From IMG/VR virus record IMGVR_UViG_2778261087_000003: 64,000 nt of DNA; one strand, given 5' to 3'. This document shows positions 56,541 through 60,826 of this stretch, in pieces (positions within the stretch are counted from its first letter, which is position 1; each line of letters starts with the position of its first letter). Under the pieces are notes generated by a model, which searched no databases, was not told the origin of the DNA, and was given only the letters and a program-made list of their open reading frames with translations. The stretch is from a virus. Its lineage: Duplodnaviria; Heunggongvirae; Uroviricota; Caudoviricetes. Both the position numbers and the translations under genes were made by a program.

Positions 56541-57803
56541 TCAGCGAACGTAAATAGTGCCGCCGTTCTCTTTTTCCCATGCATCGCTACGTGCATAGCA
56601 AACATCGAGAAGTCTTCTTGCCGCAGTTTCCTCTAAACCCAATTCGACAACCAACTGCTCATGACGGCGGGTAACCACATCAAACAGGGTATGCAGCCCT
56701 TTAGTTGCCAGATCATCAATGAATTCCGGTTCGAACGGCAGCTCTGCATCTGCCAACATAACCTCTTGCGCCCACTCAACTCGACGGACCAGTTCCGGGC
56801 GGCGGCTTTCCATCTCTTTACAGATCAATTCATGGAAGAACTCTACCCAACCTTCCGGCTGGAACTCGCGGAAAATTGCCAACGGCTGGAAGTTTGGCAT
56901 CAACCATTCGTTGATTCGGATATCAATGGCATAGCCCATGTCGCAGCAGAACTGATAAGCAAAGTCCAGCTTAGAAACGATATAAGGACGCTCGTTATTG
57001 AACTCTTTAGGCGATGAGATCCCATAAGCCAGGAGGCGCGGGAAGAAGGAGATTTGCCCTAACGTCGGATGAAGTTTGCTTGCAGGGAAACGGCGCTCAG
57101 TAATGCCATACATTTCCTTCTTGAGCGTCGCAAATTTGGCATTCTCATTAACCAGCGCGGTAACCTCTGCTTTTTTATTAGCAAATGCCACGCGCGCCTC
57201 GCTTGCATCTTTAATAGTTTTTTTGAGCTGTTGGTTAAGGTCGGCGACCTGCTTACGCAGTTCCTGTCGCTCGCTTTTAGCTTTGTTATAGCGTTTCTCA
57301 AGGTTAAAAGGATCAAGTTTCATGATCTCTTTATATTGAGATTTTAGCGTTGAAATCTGTGAGTTCCGCAGTTCAACCATCGCGGTCATTTCATTGAGTT
57401 TTGTTTCCAGCTCAATGCTTATACGTTCGGCATTATCAGCACGCTGGTTGGCGTCATGCGTCGCATCGTCGATCGCGTCCTGTTGCTGGCGTTTCAAATG
57501 TTCAATTTGCAGCTGAAGCTCTTCAATTTCTTTACCCTTCAGACCAAGATCCAACTGCATATTTTCAGCTGCATCTACCAGGGAGTTATGGCTATCAGCT
57601 TCTGCGTTATAAACATCAATAAGCTGTGCGTGAAGCATCTCCGCTGACTGAACCGCATTATCAAAAAAACGCGCTGTGAGGTCATCACAACTAACGCGGC
57701 GTTGCGCGGCCCGGATGTTCTGGATAATGGCCGGGATACCGGCATTCAGGACGTCAGGGATAGATACATTTTCGATTGATTGGTTTTGTGCTGAAGTGCT
57801 CAT
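56541..57803 (-). CDS. hypothetical coiled-coil protein (420 aa)
   Basis: Long heptad-rich central region. Confidence 0.55.
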   Translation of the reverse strand: MSTSAQNQSIENVSIPDVLNAGIPAIIQNIRAAQRRVSCDDLTARFFDNAVQSAEMLHAQLIDVYNAEADSHNSLVDAAENMQLDLGLKGKEIEELQLQIEHLKRQQQDAIDDATHDANQRADNAERISIELETKLNEMTAMVELRNSQISTLKSQYKEIMKLDPFNLEKRYNKAKSERQELRKQVADLNQQLKKTIKDASEARVAFANKKAEVTALVNENAKFATLKKEMYGITERRFPASKLHPTLGQISFFPRLLAYGISSPKEFNNERPYIVSKLDFAYQFCCDMGYAIDIRINEWLMPNFQPLAIFREFQPEGWVEFFHELICKEMESRRPELVRRVEWAQEVMLADAELPFEPEFIDDLATKGLHTLFDVVTRRHEQLVVELGLEETAARRLLDVCYARSDAWEKENGGTIYVR

Positions 57804-57804
57804 T

Positions 57805-58023
57805 TCAAAGTTCCGTATTAGCTTGTGCTTCGGTCATTTTTCCTAAGTATGAAGGAGGAAGGACTACGCAATTTGTATCCAGTCCCTCACCTATGGCAGC
57901 CTGTAAAATTCTGGCTAAGGTGAGTCTCTTGTTGCGATACCTGGTGATGACATGCCTGATACCGCCGGTCGGCGTAACAAAGGCGATCAGCCAGTAGTGA
58001 TATTTCCGTCGGAATGGCCACAT
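57805..58023 (-). CDS. hypothetical small protein
   Basis: AAGGTG SD; immediately downstream of a C1 operator. Confidence 0.35.
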   Translation of the reverse strand: MWPFRRKYHYWLIAFVTPTGGIRHVITRYRNKRLTLARILQAAIGEGLDTNCVVLPPSYLGKMTEAQANTEL

Positions 58024-58037
58024 AGCGCACCTTGTAG

Positions 58038-58054
58038 ATTGCTCTAATAAAAAA
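58038..58054 (+). promoter_or_regulatory. C1 operator (ATTGCTCTAATAAAAAA)
   Basis: Inverted relative to the operator at 58087; the pair flanks a hairpin. Confidence 0.55.
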
Positions 58055-58075
58055 CGTGATGAGTGTACATCACGT
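58047..58075 (-). terminator. hairpin with flanking A/T tracts (terminator after the upstream operon)
   Basis: acgtgatg-agtgta-catcacgt; A6 before and T3A5 after. Confidence 0.45.
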
Positions 58076-58086
58076 TTTAAAAATAT

Positions 58087-58103
58087 GGAATTATTAGAGC
58101 AAT
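58087..58103 (-). promoter_or_regulatory. C1 operator (ATTGCTCTAATAATTCC)
   Basis: Read on the minus strand. Confidence 0.55.
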
Positions 58104-58104
58104 A

Positions 58105-58806
58105 TTATTCTGATTCTCGCTCAAAAAATGAGCTGATAAGGGGAAGCCAATCCTCTGACACTTCGCGAGGTCGCGGTTTGCCGTGGAAAAAGATTATTCG
58201 GCAGTCTTTTGGTAATGCCCCATTCCCCCTGGAGTAACGCGCGCTCGCATATTTTGAACCAGGTTCCACAACATCGGCCTTGTAACTTACAAACCATCCT
58301 GGATACAGATCCTGAAATGCTGGTGTATCATCGCCCATAACCTTTCGTAAGAACCCCTGGTCACCCCAACACTCAGTAGTGACACAACGAGAAATCCAAC
58401 CTTCCGGATCTTGCCAGAATGAACTCCAGATATGCGCTTTAACACTATTTGGTATCCACAGGGCACCGCTGCCACGATATTGTGGATGGTAAAAATCCCT
58501 AAGCATGGTGAAGCTGGTTGGTGGATGCTCTAGGATTGGGCGTATATCACCGGCAATAACCGTGTCCAAATCCAGATAGAACAGATCATCGGTTATATCC
58601 GGTCGGAACAACTCGATTTTCGCCCACCAGCCACGGCACTTTTGCCACTGGTTGATCAATGGGACAACTTTGACGCCAGGTACATGTAAACGCTTCAGGT
58701 CTGTCAGGCAAATAATTTCATAGCCTTTTGGCAGTTGATTAACCAGCCACTGCACATCGGAAGCGTTATAGTCACCACCAGAGCGAAAAACTAAAGCAAT
58801 CTTCAT
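58105..58806 (-). CDS. hypothetical protein with DxD motif, possibly glycosyltransferase-like
   Basis: [11 protein letters not shown] motif; 233 aa. Confidence 0.5.
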
Positions 58807-59495
58807 GCTGCACCATCACCTTTCACTTTCATCAATGTCAGGTTTCCGCAAAATACGGCACCAGTGTCGATATACTGCTGATTCCAGAATGTCTTCGGGC
58901 TTTTCACCGGAGTGTGACCAAAGATAAAACGATCTGCGCCCGAAATTTCGCCACCAATATCATCCATCGAATCACTGATACGCTCGCGCGCCCAGACAAC
59001 GTTGAAAAGCGGCACCTCCTTACCGAATTGGTATTCATTATCCGGATAGTCGGCATGGGCTATAACGATAGTTTCTTGCCCGGTGTTCAACTCAATGATA
59101 TAGGGCAGACGCTTTACCAGCTCCACCAGCGCCCTGGCTAATATTTCCTGATCAGTGTCCAGCATGAAGAACCATTGTCCGCCATTCATTAGCCAGTTAT
59201 TCACGTTGCCATCAGGACTTAACGCATCGAGCATCAACCGCTCATGGTTCCCCATCACTGCCCTGAACCAGGGCATCTGCAATAGTTCCAGACATTCGAC
59301 ATTTTCAGTACCGCGATCGATAAGGTCGCCGACCGATATCAGTAAATCCTGCGCCGGGTCAAAATCCACACGATGGAGTTCGGACATCAGTCTGGTGTAG
59401 CAACCATGCAGATCACCAACAACCCAGACATTCCTGTATTTGGTACCGTCGATACGGTGATAAATTGTGGGTGCCATCATGTATTCTTCAGCCAT
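58803..59495 (-). CDS. Ser/Thr protein phosphatase (lambda-PPase-like)
   Basis: GDLHG, GDLIDRG and GNHE motifs in canonical order. Confidence 0.8.
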
Positions 59496-60103
59496 TCTTT
59501 AAGAGTCATCTGCGGAATACCTCCCATTTTCCCGCATGAAACAACGTCAATCTGTTCACGCGCAGACTGGAATAACAAAGGCAGGTGACTTAGATTTTTT
59601 GGCGTGCCGCCGGAGTGAACGCGTAGTTCTTGCGTAGCGTCAACGCCCACCAGAGCTACATGTTTGAATCCGATATGGAAAGCCAGGTTCAGAGCACCAT
59701 ATGCACTATTGCCGCTGGCAATTTCATTCTCATCTTCGCAAAGGCCGAAATGTGCGGACCAGCGCCACGCCCACCACTCGGGAGAATTCGTATTTTTTGG
59801 CTCCATGCCGCGTTCAGCCACACGACGGAAGCACAGAACGCCATCTCTGACTTCACGTTCTTTAACATCGGGTAGTGCCATGCAATAACAAACACCACGG
59901 CGACGGCGGCCACGACCAACGCGCCGCATATTGTCTGGCGATGGATCAAGTGTGAAAAAATAAGAAGCGCGGTTAAGCCAGTCGATGGCCCCATTGACCG
60001 CTATAATCGGCACTCCGCGCGGCGCAACAAAGTTTGCGGCGCTTGGGCCACTGCCGACGATAATAACGCGATCACTGCCTCTAAATTTATTCTTGGGAAA
60101 CAT
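59477..60103 (-). CDS. hypothetical protein with VGSGPS...IIAVN motif, paralogue of 60001-60630
   Basis: Gly-rich N-terminal motif shared with the neighbouring gene. Confidence 0.5.
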
Positions 60104-60630
60104 TGAATTGCACTGTTCCTACTTGCATTCAAAATATGTAAATCTGCGTGTTTTTTGCGGGTATCCAGGAACTGCTGTTGCCATTTTGAAATAGACACCT
60201 GCGTTGGATTCCGTAGGGCTTGAGGATGCGCGCCATGCCAATGAAGGCCGTTTTGCAGAGAACAGTCATAGCCGACTAATACAACTACTTCAGCCCCTGA
60301 TTCAGCAGCCAGACTGATAGCCTGCGCGCCGCTATTTACCCCTTCCGCCGGTCCACAATATCGCCTGTACTCCAACGAAAATGATTTCGCCGCCGCCAGG
60401 TTGGCTGTCACTTTGCGGAATCTCCCTCCCGGTATGGTGGATCCGTATTGCTTCCACCATGACGAATCACCGGCGTATAAGGCATAAATGTCATCGAACA
60501 TCTGCCAGGAATTGTTAACCGCGATGATTGAACAGCCAGTTTTTTCTATAGCAGCACAGTCCTCACGAGTGAGTGACGGACCGCTACCGACACAAAAAAC
60601 AGTCCTAGTCGCCCTGGGTGGTATGTTCAT
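60001..60630 (-). CDS. hypothetical protein with VGSGPS...IIAVN motif, paralogue of 59477-60103
   Basis: Start taken at MNIPPRATRTVFCVGSGPSL; 3' end overlaps the next gene by ~100 nt. Confidence 0.5.
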   Translation of the reverse strand: MNIPPRATRTVFCVGSGPSLTREDCAAIEKTGCSIIAVNNSWQMFDDIYALYAGDSSWWKQYGSTIPGGRFRKVTANLAAAKSFSLEYRRYCGPAEGVNSGAQAISLAAESGAEVVVLVGYDCSLQNGLHWHGAHPQALRNPTQVSISKWQQQFLDTRKKHADLHILNASRNSAIQCFPRINLEAVIALLSSAVAQAPQTLLRRAECRL

Positions 60631-60826
60631 TCTCAGCTGCAAATTCAGCCTCCAGGCGAGCATTCATTTCAGCGATTACCGGGTCCACTACAGCATCTGC
60701 TTCCTGTTCATTACGCGGCATGATCGATGCCAGCGATTCATAATTAGCCTTGGATGACACGATTATTCTCCCGATGTTAATGTGCGCTGTATCAAAGAAT
60801 ACATATGCACTAATTAATTTATTATT

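Follow-up and report, generated by a model that had tools for sequence, protein, structure and literature searches.

Genes and Control Elements of the Operon

The stretch of DNA analysed here (64,000 nucleotides; hereafter the window) is 98.8–99% identical in nucleotide sequence to phage P1 and RCS47, and its genes correspond to theirs one for one. The region under study is the P1 operon pmgN-pmgO-pmgP-ppp-pmgQ, which has long been annotated and whose function is unexplained. Its features are:

60833–60859, minus strand: PpmgN, a predicted sigma-70 promoter within the 3′ end of pmgM (prediction of the P1 depositor)
60804–60820, plus strand: C1 operator Oppp (formerly Op83), TATGCACTAATTAATTT, between pmgM and pmgN, mapped from the P1 record
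60605–60760, minus strand: pmgN (hdmA in P7), first gene of the operon, 51 aa, GTG start, overlapping pmgO by 59 nt (open reading frame and P1/P7 annotation)
60001–60663, minus strand: pmgO (hdmB), 220 aa, predicted Maf/GT42/MptE-like (DUF115 superfamily) transferase
59477–60103, minus strand: pmgP (hdmC), 208 aa, distant paralogue of PmgO
58803–59495, minus strand: ppp, 230 aa, lambda-type (NinI/PPP-family) Ser/Thr/Tyr protein phosphatase
58105–58806, minus strand: pmgQ (hdmD), 233 aa, predicted GT8-like GT-A glycosyltransferase
58087–58103, minus strand: C1 operator Op86a (consensus search and P1 annotation)
58053–58083, minus strand: terminator-like hairpin, AAAACGUGAUG / UACACU / CAUCACGUUUU followed by UUUUUUAUU, beginning 22 nt past the pmgQ stop codon
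58038–58054, plus strand: C1 operator Op86b (consensus search and P1 annotation)

The open reading frames of pmgO, pmgP, ppp and pmgQ agree exactly with the P1 annotation. An earlier note on this DNA had described four co-directional genes between pairs of C1 operators; the reading frames and their strand hold, but there is a fifth gene, pmgN, and the upstream operator is single. The pmgN product matches PHROG 2350 (unknown function) and has no match in Pfam or NCBIfam, and scans of the P1 proteins against these two libraries placed Ppp alone with confidence. A PADLOC scan of the operon proteins gave no match to a defence system. In P1, the operon is located outside the head block, between the tail/baseplate genes and pmgR-pmgS.

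A scan of IMG/VR with a PmgP alignment recovered 80 P1 copies that were near-identical and showed no diversity. Among the 56 P1-like IMG/VR contigs with full flanks, pmgN, pmgO, pmgP and ppp were intact in every one, and pmgQ in 53. The operon genes are dispensable for P1 plaque formation (PMC10695390; PMC9024508); the module is non-essential and not needed for plaques on laboratory E. coli. Our literature search found no paper that gives pmgO, pmgP or pmgQ a function or that reports P1 glycans.

A search allowing up to three mismatches to the C1 consensus found 12 sites in the window, compared with 0.26 expected. Oppp matches the consensus at 13 of 17 positions and, with four mismatches, falls outside this search. 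It lies downstream of PpmgN; our own consensus promoter scan of positions 57700–62000 returned no promoter-like site. At the other end, Op86b and Op86a form an inverted pair (58038–58103) just downstream of pmgQ, marking the 3′ border of the pmgN-pmgQ operon, and the P1 record assigns this pair to the next operon, pmgR-pmgS. The terminator-like hairpin is nested between the two inverted operators. The minus-strand RNA of positions 58036–58108 folds at −26.9 kcal/mol (z −9.3), and none of 200 shuffled sequences was as stable. In the prophage state, C1 bound at Oppp would repress the operon, and its transcript would end at the hairpin between the Op86 operators.

The pmgO/pmgP Overlap

The 3′ end of pmgO and the 5′ end of pmgP share the following segment:

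60001–60103, minus strand: out-of-frame overlap of 103 nt, with pmgP in the −1 frame

This length bears out the earlier description of the overlap as unusually long. A sequencing artefact, which the note named as a refuting outcome, is not borne out, as both genes are intact in all 56 P1-like contigs. The pmgP ATG is nested in the Gln-Cys codons of the conserved Q-C-F-P-R (CFPR motif) of PmgO, and the constraint is divided along the segment: positions 60058–60103 encode the conserved C-terminus of PmgO and a variable leader of PmgP, and positions 60001–60057 encode the conserved GSGPS motif of PmgP and a variable tail of PmgO. The nested ATG recurs in the relatives L005, L007, L008, L091 and L092, with overlaps of 37–94 nt.

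Could the overlap be a programmed −1 frameshift site that yields a PmgO-PmgP fusion protein, as the earlier note had allowed? The frame of pmgP is the right one, two heptamers of the X XXY YYZ type occur in the overlap in the pmgO frame (T TTC CCA at 60100 and A AAT TTA at 60088), and an O-P fusion protein exists in nature (P0079). However, T TTC CCA is dictated by the conserved Cys-Phe-Pro codons and is lost in L005 and L092 (C TTC) despite their nested start, so that the heptamers are not conserved among relatives with the same overlap. Furthermore, the 83 nt of RNA downstream of them folds no better than shuffled sequences (z 0.15), a shift at either heptamer would remove the conserved C-terminal helix of PmgO that the natural fusion retains, and pmgP has a conserved ATG of its own. 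Frameshifting is extremely improbable; the overlap is an ancient nested-start arrangement with no recoding site.

PmgO and PmgP Are Transferase-Like Paralogues

PmgO and PmgP have in common the motif VGSGPS...IIAVN, from which the earlier note had recognised two paralogues. By BLASTP the two resemble each other only faintly (E 0.003 over 52 aa), but the two family profiles align by hhalign over 162 columns (probability 98.2%, E 5.9e-14), and the proteins are therefore true, distant paralogues. PmgO is marked by SGPSL, AVNNSW, AGD..WW, NSG, LLGYDCS..G.HWHG.H and N.SR...CF.R, whereas the first ~11–17 and the last ~18 residues are unconserved. Compared with PmgO, PmgP contains an extra inserted segment, EP..SPEWW.WRWSA. 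The PmgP family comprises 525 clusters (50% identity; E ≤ 1e-3) among 1.84 billion representatives.

The P1 proteins miss the gathering score of PF01973 (34.6 bits), with 23.4 bits for PmgO and 20.9 bits for PmgP. Nevertheless, at E ≤ 1 this family was matched by all 30 PmgP relatives and by 25 of 26 PmgO relatives, and the natural O-P fusion scores 44.6 bits. Judged from these profile matches, PmgO and PmgP are distant members of the MptE-like/DUF115 superfamily (PF01973). Both have the Rossmann-like fold common to Maf, GT42 and MptE enzymes. Their best structural match, which is also the longest (163 aligned residues), is the glycosyltransferase Maf (PDB 5mu5), and sialyltransferases of three families are among the other matches. 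Sequence searches of the PDB were suggestive at most for PmgO and uninformative for PmgP, and a search of a viral fold library returned uncharacterised proteins only. PmgO and PmgP are transferase-like, with Maf, Cst-I, MptE and WaaZ as their nearest relatives, and are putative glycosyltransferases. That the VGSGPS paralogues are themselves transferase-like had escaped the earlier note. The family alignments contain no conserved candidate catalytic His at an equal position in PmgO and PmgP, and for this reason one of the two may be non-catalytic.

The Maf flagellin glycosyltransferases (Magnetospirillum, 5mu5) are ~600 residues long, contain additional domains and take CMP-pseudaminic or CMP-legionaminic acid as donors, whereas PmgO and PmgP are a paralogous pair of ~200-residue single domains (16% identity), whose hosts include bacteria without nonulosonic-acid synthesis such as E. 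coli K-12. With Campylobacter Cst-I and Cst-II (GT42), the profile-to-sequence match is non-significant (E 0.7–0.8); the nucleotide-binding motifs of Cst-II align with PmgO, but its phosphate-binding tyrosines and His188 have no clear counterpart. E. coli K-12 is not known to produce CMP-sialic acid. The functional label "sialyltransferase" (GT42), which RefSeq and PHROGs attach to PmgO/PmgP, is not justified. E. coli K-12 WaaZ, the KdoIII transferase (which we take to be CAZy family GT73), is covered almost end to end by a PF01973 match (E 6.9e-7), and it aligns weakly with the C-terminal motifs A..A..L....I..G.D and I.N.S..T...P...L of PmgO (hhalign E 0.0015, probability 17%). Within the superfamily, it is the member with a donor, CMP-Kdo, that all Gram-negative hosts possess. 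Unlike PmgO, however, WaaZ has 283 residues, is chromosomal and single-copy, and acts on the lipid-linked core.

PmgQ Is Predicted to Be a GT8-like Glycosyltransferase

Across 26 PmgQ homologues, the invariant positions are W60-W61-x-K63, D79-L-D81-T82, G148-D149, S174-x-K176 and H208-G-x-P-x-P213. The DxD metal ligands (D79 and D81) are thus accompanied by a C-terminal His in an equally invariant setting (H208, G209, P211 and P213), which is presumably the equivalent of the GT8 motif H-x-x-G-x-x-K-P-W. The GT-A fold of PmgQ is closest to solved GT8 enzymes, with LgtC among the best structural matches, which agrees with the earlier suggestion that the DxD protein may be a glycosyltransferase. 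On the other hand, no Pfam or NCBIfam family, PF01501 included, was matched at E ≤ 0.1, and a search of PDB sequences gave only a GT8-type galactosyltransferase (E 0.086). Because a match to a family sequence model is absent, we call PmgQ GT8-like rather than a member of GT8. Its identity to the retaining GT8 enzymes (LgtC, glycogenin, GlyE, Skp1 alpha-galactosyltransferase; WaaJ/WaaO-type core enzymes) is 13–17%, and at 233 aa most of them exceed it in length.

PmgO, PmgP and PmgQ Form a Widespread Unit

We tabulated 23 loci, and in nearly all of them O, P and Q occur together, in varying gene order; in GC-rich loci, genes were called on the same strand. The unit is carried on chromosomal islands as well as by phages and prophages, from a broad spread of bacteria (Enterobacterales, Pseudomonas, Zhongshania, Microbulbifer, Methylophilaceae, Brevundimonas, Sinomicrobium of the Bacteroidota, and Longimicrobiales), and every identifiable host is Gram-negative. 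Natural fusions join O to P (P0079), P to Q (P0208 and P0276) and Q to P (P0299), and others include a methyltransferase (Q-P-methyltransferase in P0257, methyltransferase-P in P0293). Backed by these fusions, pmgO, pmgP and pmgQ are one conserved, widespread unit.

Further enzymes accompany the unit. Genes for SAM methyltransferases are found between P and Q in L099, L104 and L108, and FkbM methyltransferases in L105 and L106; the accompanying methyltransferases are of small-molecule or sugar types (FkbM, Methyltransf_11/23/25). A carbohydrate sulfotransferase (PF03567) is present in L109, a GT4-like enzyme in L008, and extra GT-A enzymes in L112 and probably L004.

The position of the unit also recurs. 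In L004, L099, L101 and L109 it is flanked by the major capsid gene on one side and a gp6-like head-tail connector gene on the other. In L104 the tail terminator and the tail tube enclose it, and in L005, L007 and L108 it separates lysis genes from terminase genes. The phages D3 and PAJU2 have a PmgO homologue only, without PmgP or PmgQ, inside the structural block; that of PAJU2 (ORF010) carries the database label "structural protein". Putative glycosyltransferase genes are thus found within the structural block in L004, L099, L101, L104, L109, D3 and PAJU2. PAJU2 ORF011/D3 orf12 was considered as a GT9 heptosyltransferase and set aside, as neither Pfam nor PDB sequences supported it. The post-capsid and lysis-terminase positions are also classic "moron" insertion sites, which speaks against a virion link. 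The three genes of Pseudescherichia and Serratia are interspersed among those of inverse-autotransporter and Big_1 surface proteins, an arrangement that fits protein acceptors.

A Probable Glycan-Assembly Module Acting Late in Infection

What might the three proteins do together? On balance, we think that the core of the P1 operon is probably a three-enzyme glycan-assembly module, composed of PmgO/PmgP and PmgQ, that serves a late acceptor. PmgO and PmgP, as diverged paralogues within the superfamily of Maf, GT42 sialyltransferases, WaaZ and MptE-like proteins, would probably act as a pair, and PmgQ is predicted to be a metal-dependent (DxD plus His), retaining, GT8-like hexosyltransferase. 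The three would draw on host sugar nucleotides to assemble a short glycan and place it on an acceptor made late in infection, of which a head or tail protein is the likeliest. Other phages add further glycosyltransferases to the module, or sugar-type methyltransferases or a sulfotransferase, and the interval between pmgP and pmgQ is an accessory slot that holds tailoring genes elsewhere and ppp in P1. The earlier note had proposed modification rather than morphogenesis: the enzymatic character and the dispensability for plaques uphold the first half, but the contrast is perhaps too strong, since in many relatives the module sits in the head/tail block. The most likely target of decoration is a late (virion) protein. 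The literature that we searched describes no activity, donor or acceptor for any member of the three families, and recent cryo-EM papers on the P1 capsid and baseplate do not mention glycans. The virion glycosylation of actinobacteriophages and the capsid glycosylation of chloroviruses (A64R, 2p6w) employ other enzyme families; P1-type modules have Gram-negative hosts and, unlike in those systems, reports of a glycosylated virion protein are lacking for P1 and every other carrier.

The strongest alternative, which we nevertheless regard as unlikely, takes the lipopolysaccharide core as the target. PmgO and PmgP would add Kdo-type residues and PmgQ a hexose, and the altered or truncated core, which is the P1 receptor, would limit superinfection or the loss of progeny on debris. 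Each of the three proteins indeed resembles a family of lipopolysaccharide-core enzymes: WaaZ is PF01973-like and aligns with PmgO, the natural fusion P0079 has a faint precomputed match to WaaZ_KDO_III (PF27901), and LgtC, one of the best structural matches to PmgQ, is a lipooligosaccharide enzyme. Overexpression of WaaZ reportedly truncates the outer core. The restriction to Gram-negative hosts fits a lipopolysaccharide acceptor, but fits lipopolysaccharide-precursor donors just as well. Against this target, C1 repression in P1 lysogens confines expression to the lytic cycle, which leaves little time for replacing the lipopolysaccharide of the outer membrane, and in many relatives the module, with its overlapping reading frames, is embedded in late head or tail blocks. 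Moreover, the likeness to WaaZ is weak at an hhalign probability of 17%, and Maf, the top structural match of PmgO/PmgP, is a protein glycosyltransferase.

The Phosphatase Is a Lineage-Specific Insertion

Ppp scores 59.4 bits against PF00149 (cut-off 21.5) and belongs to PHROG 246 (NinI-like). Over its residues 11–229 it matches lambda phosphatase (1G5B) with an E value of 5.8e-95. It aligns end to end with this enzyme (lambda NinI) and keeps the motifs GDxHG, GDxxDRG and GNHE in its translation. By sequence, Ppp is an orthologue, or near-orthologue, of lambda phosphatase, as the earlier description of a canonical lambda-type enzyme had it. It stays below the equivalog cut-offs of the E. coli host phosphatases PrpA/PrpB (NF008516, 274.9 vs. 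326; NF007425, 241.2 vs. 332) and is thus related but not equivalent to them.

The distribution of ppp differs from that of its neighbours. Only 3 of the 23 tabulated loci contain it, all of them P1-like, and it is absent from every non-P1 module locus. In the P1 relative D6, a ppp gene of 90% nucleotide identity is surrounded by lambdoid nin-type genes, and pmgO, pmgP and pmgQ are absent; in lambda, too, the phosphatase gene is in the nin-type early region, whereas in P1 it stands between pmgP and pmgQ. Ppp is a lineage-specific, independently mobile insertion between these two genes, and it probably lies outside the glycan pathway.

This distribution undercuts the reading of the phosphatase, the DxD protein and the paralogues as one combined system for modifying host proteins or phage DNA, which we consider very unlikely: PmgO, PmgP and PmgQ travel without Ppp, the D6 gene has an unrelated context, and P1 Ppp is close to the lambda enzyme. 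In its favour, the four P1 genes share a transcript and their start and stop codons overlap, and because the pmgP-pmgQ site holds genuine tailoring enzymes elsewhere, a functional recruitment of Ppp is conceivable. Modification of DNA in particular is unlikely. Restriction enzymes cut P1 DNA normally, as is well established from cloning work with this phage. No hydroxymethylase, dioxygenase or DNA methyltransferase lies alongside the module, the methyltransferases being of the types named above, and P1 deletion mutants showed no antirestriction phenotype (PMC9024508). Scarcely probable, finally, is a metabolite as the product, with PmgO/PmgP activating a small molecule in the manner of MptE or thiamine pyrophosphokinase and PmgQ transferring it, since Maf is the best and longest match and three sialyltransferase families match too, the GxGPS and (N/T)SG...GxD motifs correspond to Cst-II, and the partners of the module are glycosyltransferases and sugar-tailoring enzymes.

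Implications for P1 and Its Relatives

A broader version of the virion-protein reading is speculative and, taken as a whole, rather unlikely. It holds that P1, D3-like, lambdoid and jumbo phages of Proteobacteria, Bacteroidota and Gemmatimonadota glycosylate their own virion proteins by means of a Maf/WaaZ-like hetero-pair and a GT8-like enzyme, with lipopolysaccharide precursors (such as CMP-Kdo and UDP-hexose) as donors, and that the same enzymes have been domesticated in Pseudescherichia and Serratia for inverse-autotransporter/Big_1 adhesins. If true, this would be, to our knowledge, the first virion-glycosylation system of Gram-negative phages and possibly the first Kdo-type glycosylation of a protein.

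Few phages are used as heavily as P1, yet its "putative morphogenetic" genes have been without a function for twenty years, while labels such as "alpha-2,3-sialyltransferase" and "norphogenetic protein" propagate through the databases without a test. The definition of the O-P-Q unit, its spread and the status of the phosphatase as a passenger turn these orphan genes into a testable pathway, for which simple mutants can be taken from the deletion and CRISPRi collections already published. With lipopolysaccharide as the acceptor, P1 would be remodelling its own receptor. If the acceptor is a virion protein, Gram-negative phage particles carry glycans, which would be relevant to immune recognition in phage therapy, to particle stability and to adsorption.

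The Operon and Its Genes

The 57800-61500 part of the window is 98.8-99.0% identical, over its full length, to phage P1 and to P1-like phage-plasmids, RCS47 and P7 among them. An earlier note on this DNA had described four co-directional genes at 58105-60663 lying between C1 operator pairs. The gene set was confirmed, its coordinates coinciding exactly with four annotated P1 genes, but a small fifth gene, pmgN, stands first in the operon, and the upstream operator is single rather than paired. Since the genes were already known and annotated, the region itself is no discovery.

Genes and C1 operators of the operon in the window
60804-60820: single C1 operator Oppp/Op83, upstream of the operon
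60605-60760: pmgN, small gene, first in the operon, overlapping pmgO by 59 nt
60001-60663, minus strand: pmgO
59477-60103, minus strand: pmgP
58803-59495, minus strand: ppp, phosphatase
58105-58806, minus strand: pmgQ
58038-58054 and 58087-58103: inverted C1 operator pair, downstream, part of the next operon

The P1 record labels the pmg genes "putative morphogenetic function", the P7 record names the same genes hdmA-D, "head morphogenesis", and RefSeq relabels them "alpha-2,3-sialyltransferase", "norphogenetic protein", "metallophosphoesterase" and "glycosyltransferase". For pmgN, a CRISPRi screen scores the gene as essential (efficiency of plating 1.4e-2; PMC10695390), contrary to a deletion library in which it is non-essential (PMC9024508). 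The start of pmgO is ambiguous, as residues 1-17 have a pLDDT below 50 and about the first 11 residues are missing in homologues; an alternative in-frame ATG at 60630, in the 5' end of the gene (60630-60663), would reduce the pmgN overlap to 26 nt. Upstream of the operon, pmgM (60827-61405) has a sub-threshold match to the VRR-NUC nuclease domain (20.9 bits against a cut-off of 23.8) and appears in RefSeq as a VRR-NUC domain protein or Holliday junction resolvase; phage phi456 carries an IS1 (InsB) insertion in this gene.

A sigma-70 consensus scan of 57700-62000 returned no promoter-like site (shuffles give 5.6 +/- 2.5), and the promoters that the P1 record lists, PpmgN and PpmgR among them, were predicted by its depositors. 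Between the inverted C1 operators, 22 nt past the pmgQ stop, lies a strong terminator-like hairpin with a U-tract (RNA fold of 58036-58108, minus strand: -26.9 kcal/mol, z -9.3), the stem of which is extended by the operators themselves; it is not among the sites listed by a consensus terminator scan.

The phosphatase had been called lambda-type, and this is borne out by a full-length match to lambda protein phosphatase 1G5B (E 5.8e-95) and by PF00149 at 59.4 bits; Ppp is a full-length orthologue of that enzyme. PmgO and PmgP, both Maf/GT42/MptE-like, barely match pairwise (E 0.003). An alignment of their family profiles, in contrast, spans 162 columns (hhalign 98.2%, E 5.9e-14), so the paralogy that the earlier note had named is real and old. 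The E. coli KdoIII transferase WaaZ also falls in the Pfam superfamily of these two proteins (PF01973, E 6.9e-7) and aligns weakly with the C-terminal motifs of PmgO. The PmgP family comprises 525 clusters at 50% identity (E<=1e-3) among 1.84 billion representatives.

A Transferase-like Module Separate from the Phosphatase

HMMs built from three alignments (PmgO, PmgP and the GT8-like PmgQ) were run against the ORFs, in all six frames, of 23 loci, some from the P1 group and some from outside it. The full set of three homologues, arranged in several different orders, turned up in phages, prophages and islands from Escherichia, Citrobacter, Serratia, Pseudescherichia, Pantoea, Pseudomonas, Zhongshania, Brevundimonas and Sinomicrobium (Bacteroidota). 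Two of the three were found in Buttiauxella, Methylophilaceae, a Longimicrobiales MAG and Microbulbifer, the last with a locus that breaks off directly after PmgP. Metagenomic proteins fuse O to P (P0079), P to Q (P0208, P0276) and Q to P (P0299), in further cases with a methyltransferase (Q-P-SAM methyltransferase, P0257; methyltransferase-P, P0293), and such fusions tie the three proteins together. The three transferase-like proteins are inherited, rearranged and fused as a unit. Three other proteins of ~400 aa (P0321, P0326, P0343) join PmgP to a second domain read as DUF115-like, which the HMMs of this analysis did not confirm.

The earlier note had taken phosphatase, DxD protein and paralogues as one combination, a view that does not hold across these loci: a Ppp homologue is present in only 3 of the 23, all P1-like. 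In the P1 relative D6 (locus L107, 3990-4682), ppp lies amid lambdoid nin-type small genes at 90% nucleotide identity to P1, with pmgO, pmgP and pmgQ absent near it, which indicates that the phosphatase gene alone was recently exchanged. In P1, ppp appears to be an unrelated inserted phosphatase, a passenger of the module.

The pmgO/pmgP Overlap

The 103-nt overlap of pmgO and pmgP, noticed as unusually long, is real: each of the 56 full-flank P1-like contigs that were examined keeps it intact. The ATG of pmgP falls within the Gln-Cys codons of the conserved C-F-P-R motif of PmgO. This nested ATG is shared by an E. coli prophage, Citrobacter phage phiNP, coliphage EP_H11, a Pantoea P1-like plasmid and Chimaeribacter, where the two genes overlap by 37-94 nt; in the Pseudomonas and Zhongshania versions the overlap is only about 11-13 nt (most likely ATG start). 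How long the overlap is depends on the reach of the non-conserved PmgO tail; the core of PmgO extends to about residue 202, and its homologues terminate sooner. Its 5' part encodes the conserved PmgO C-terminus and a variable PmgP leader, and its 3' part the PmgP GSGPS motif and the variable PmgO tail; the constrained parts of the two frames are staggered.

Could the overlap hide a frameshift or recoding site, as had been proposed? Relative to pmgO, pmgP is read in the -1 frame, and the overlap contains two slippery-type heptamers. Programmed recoding is not supported, because the first heptamer, a consequence of the Cys-Phe-Pro codons, is missing from relatives in which the overlap persists, because the RNA structure after the heptamers is nothing unusual (z 0.15), and because a shift there would drop a helix kept in the natural O-P fusion.

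Genomic Position and Accessory Genes

Between the pmgP and pmgQ homologues, different loci carry different genes.

Genes in the slot between pmgP and pmgQ homologues
Window, 58803-59495: phosphatase (ppp, P1)
Zhongshania prophage (L099), 10570-11139: class-I SAM methyltransferase
Brevundimonas prophage (L104), 10881-11438: class-I SAM methyltransferase
Alloalcanivorax prophage (L108), 7573-8133: class-I SAM methyltransferase
Contig with Gilvimarinus-type PmgP homologue (L109), 7579-8193: carbohydrate sulfotransferase PF03567
Coliphage EP_H11 (L008), 6602-7570: GT4-like glycosyltransferase

Either tailoring enzymes are preferentially acquired at this slot, or the slot simply tolerates insertions. 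Furthermore, FkbM-type methyltransferases flank the module in Bacteroidota and Longimicrobiales loci, and extra GT-A proteins follow it in locus L112 and probably also in the Pseudomonas locus L004. The gene make-up is that of a putative glycan-assembly cluster with variable tailoring.

In the Pseudomonas, Zhongshania, Methylophilaceae (L101) and Gilvimarinus-type loci, the module lies between the major capsid gene and a gp6-like head-tail connector, and in Brevundimonas between tail terminator and tail tube. Lysis genes on one side and terminase genes on the other border it in an E. coli prophage, phiNP and an Alloalcanivorax prophage. Phages D3 and PAJU2 have a PmgO homologue alone, with PmgP and PmgQ absent; it comes after the major head gene in D3 and after the head-tail adaptor in PAJU2, where ORF010 is annotated "structural protein" and the homologue was reportedly detected in phage particles. 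Late or structural positions and accessory sugar-tailoring enzymes thus accompany the module.

In D3-type phages the PmgO homologue is accompanied by a SAM methyltransferase and by a conserved 275-aa protein of unknown family (PAJU2 ORF010-012, L115 4474-6417; D3 orf6.5, orf7, orf12 and orf13, L116 4337-7789). D3 orf7 is apparently annotated too short, its open frame running upstream through the SGPSL motif and overlapping orf6.5.

In a Pseudescherichia chromosomal island (L111, genes 2241-15359), full-length O, P and Q are interleaved with an inverse-autotransporter invasin (IAT_beta and Big_1 repeats) and other Big_1 proteins, and phage genes are absent from the locus. A Serratia plymuthica chromosomal locus (L003, 816-11102) has full-length O, P and Q beside two Big_1 proteins and lysis-gene remnants (holin, lysozyme), without phage structural genes. 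The island layout recurs in five related genomes (L093-L097; four Pseudescherichia and one unclassified Enterobacteriaceae MAG). These arrangements suggest that the island module was domesticated, possibly for adhesin glycosylation.

A Proposed Function for the Module

The genes pmgO, pmgP, ppp and pmgQ are dispensable for plaque formation: CRISPRi gives efficiencies of plating of ~0.7-1.4 (PMC10695390), and their deletions have no plating or antirestriction phenotype (PMC9024508). What, then, might the module do? It is plausible that PmgO and PmgP act as a pair and that PmgQ adds a hexose. One member of the pair may lack catalytic activity, as the histidines that could serve in catalysis do not occupy equivalent positions in the two proteins. 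The donors would be host sugar nucleotides, with CMP-Kdo a candidate because the hosts are Gram-negative only and because of the link to WaaZ. The acceptor would be a late-made protein, with a component of the virion the likeliest choice.

Taken as a whole, we consider this reading somewhat probable; within it, a virion protein as acceptor is a tentative choice that could well prove wrong. Lipopolysaccharide could be the acceptor instead, which we regard as unlikely, and the other explanations, even taken together, are improbable. Against the module reading stand the facts that the fold also houses pyrophosphokinases and that the P1 cryo-EM papers make no mention of glycans. The sites that the module occupies in other phages are classic moron insertion sites too, which also counts against the proposal.

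The proposed module would work like the virion-glycosylation clusters of phages and giant viruses and like Maf-type protein glycosylation; it differs from them in enzyme families and hosts. In the searchable literature, we found no description of pmgO-pmgP-pmgQ as one conserved, fusion-linked glycosylation module in phages of distant Gram-negative phyla, of its association with capsid/tail gene blocks and sugar-tailoring enzymes, of ppp as a passenger or of the nested-start architecture of the overlap. In its fullest and more doubtful form, the proposal is that P1-type virions might be self-glycosylated with a Kdo-type glycan and that a domesticated version of the module might act on adhesins.
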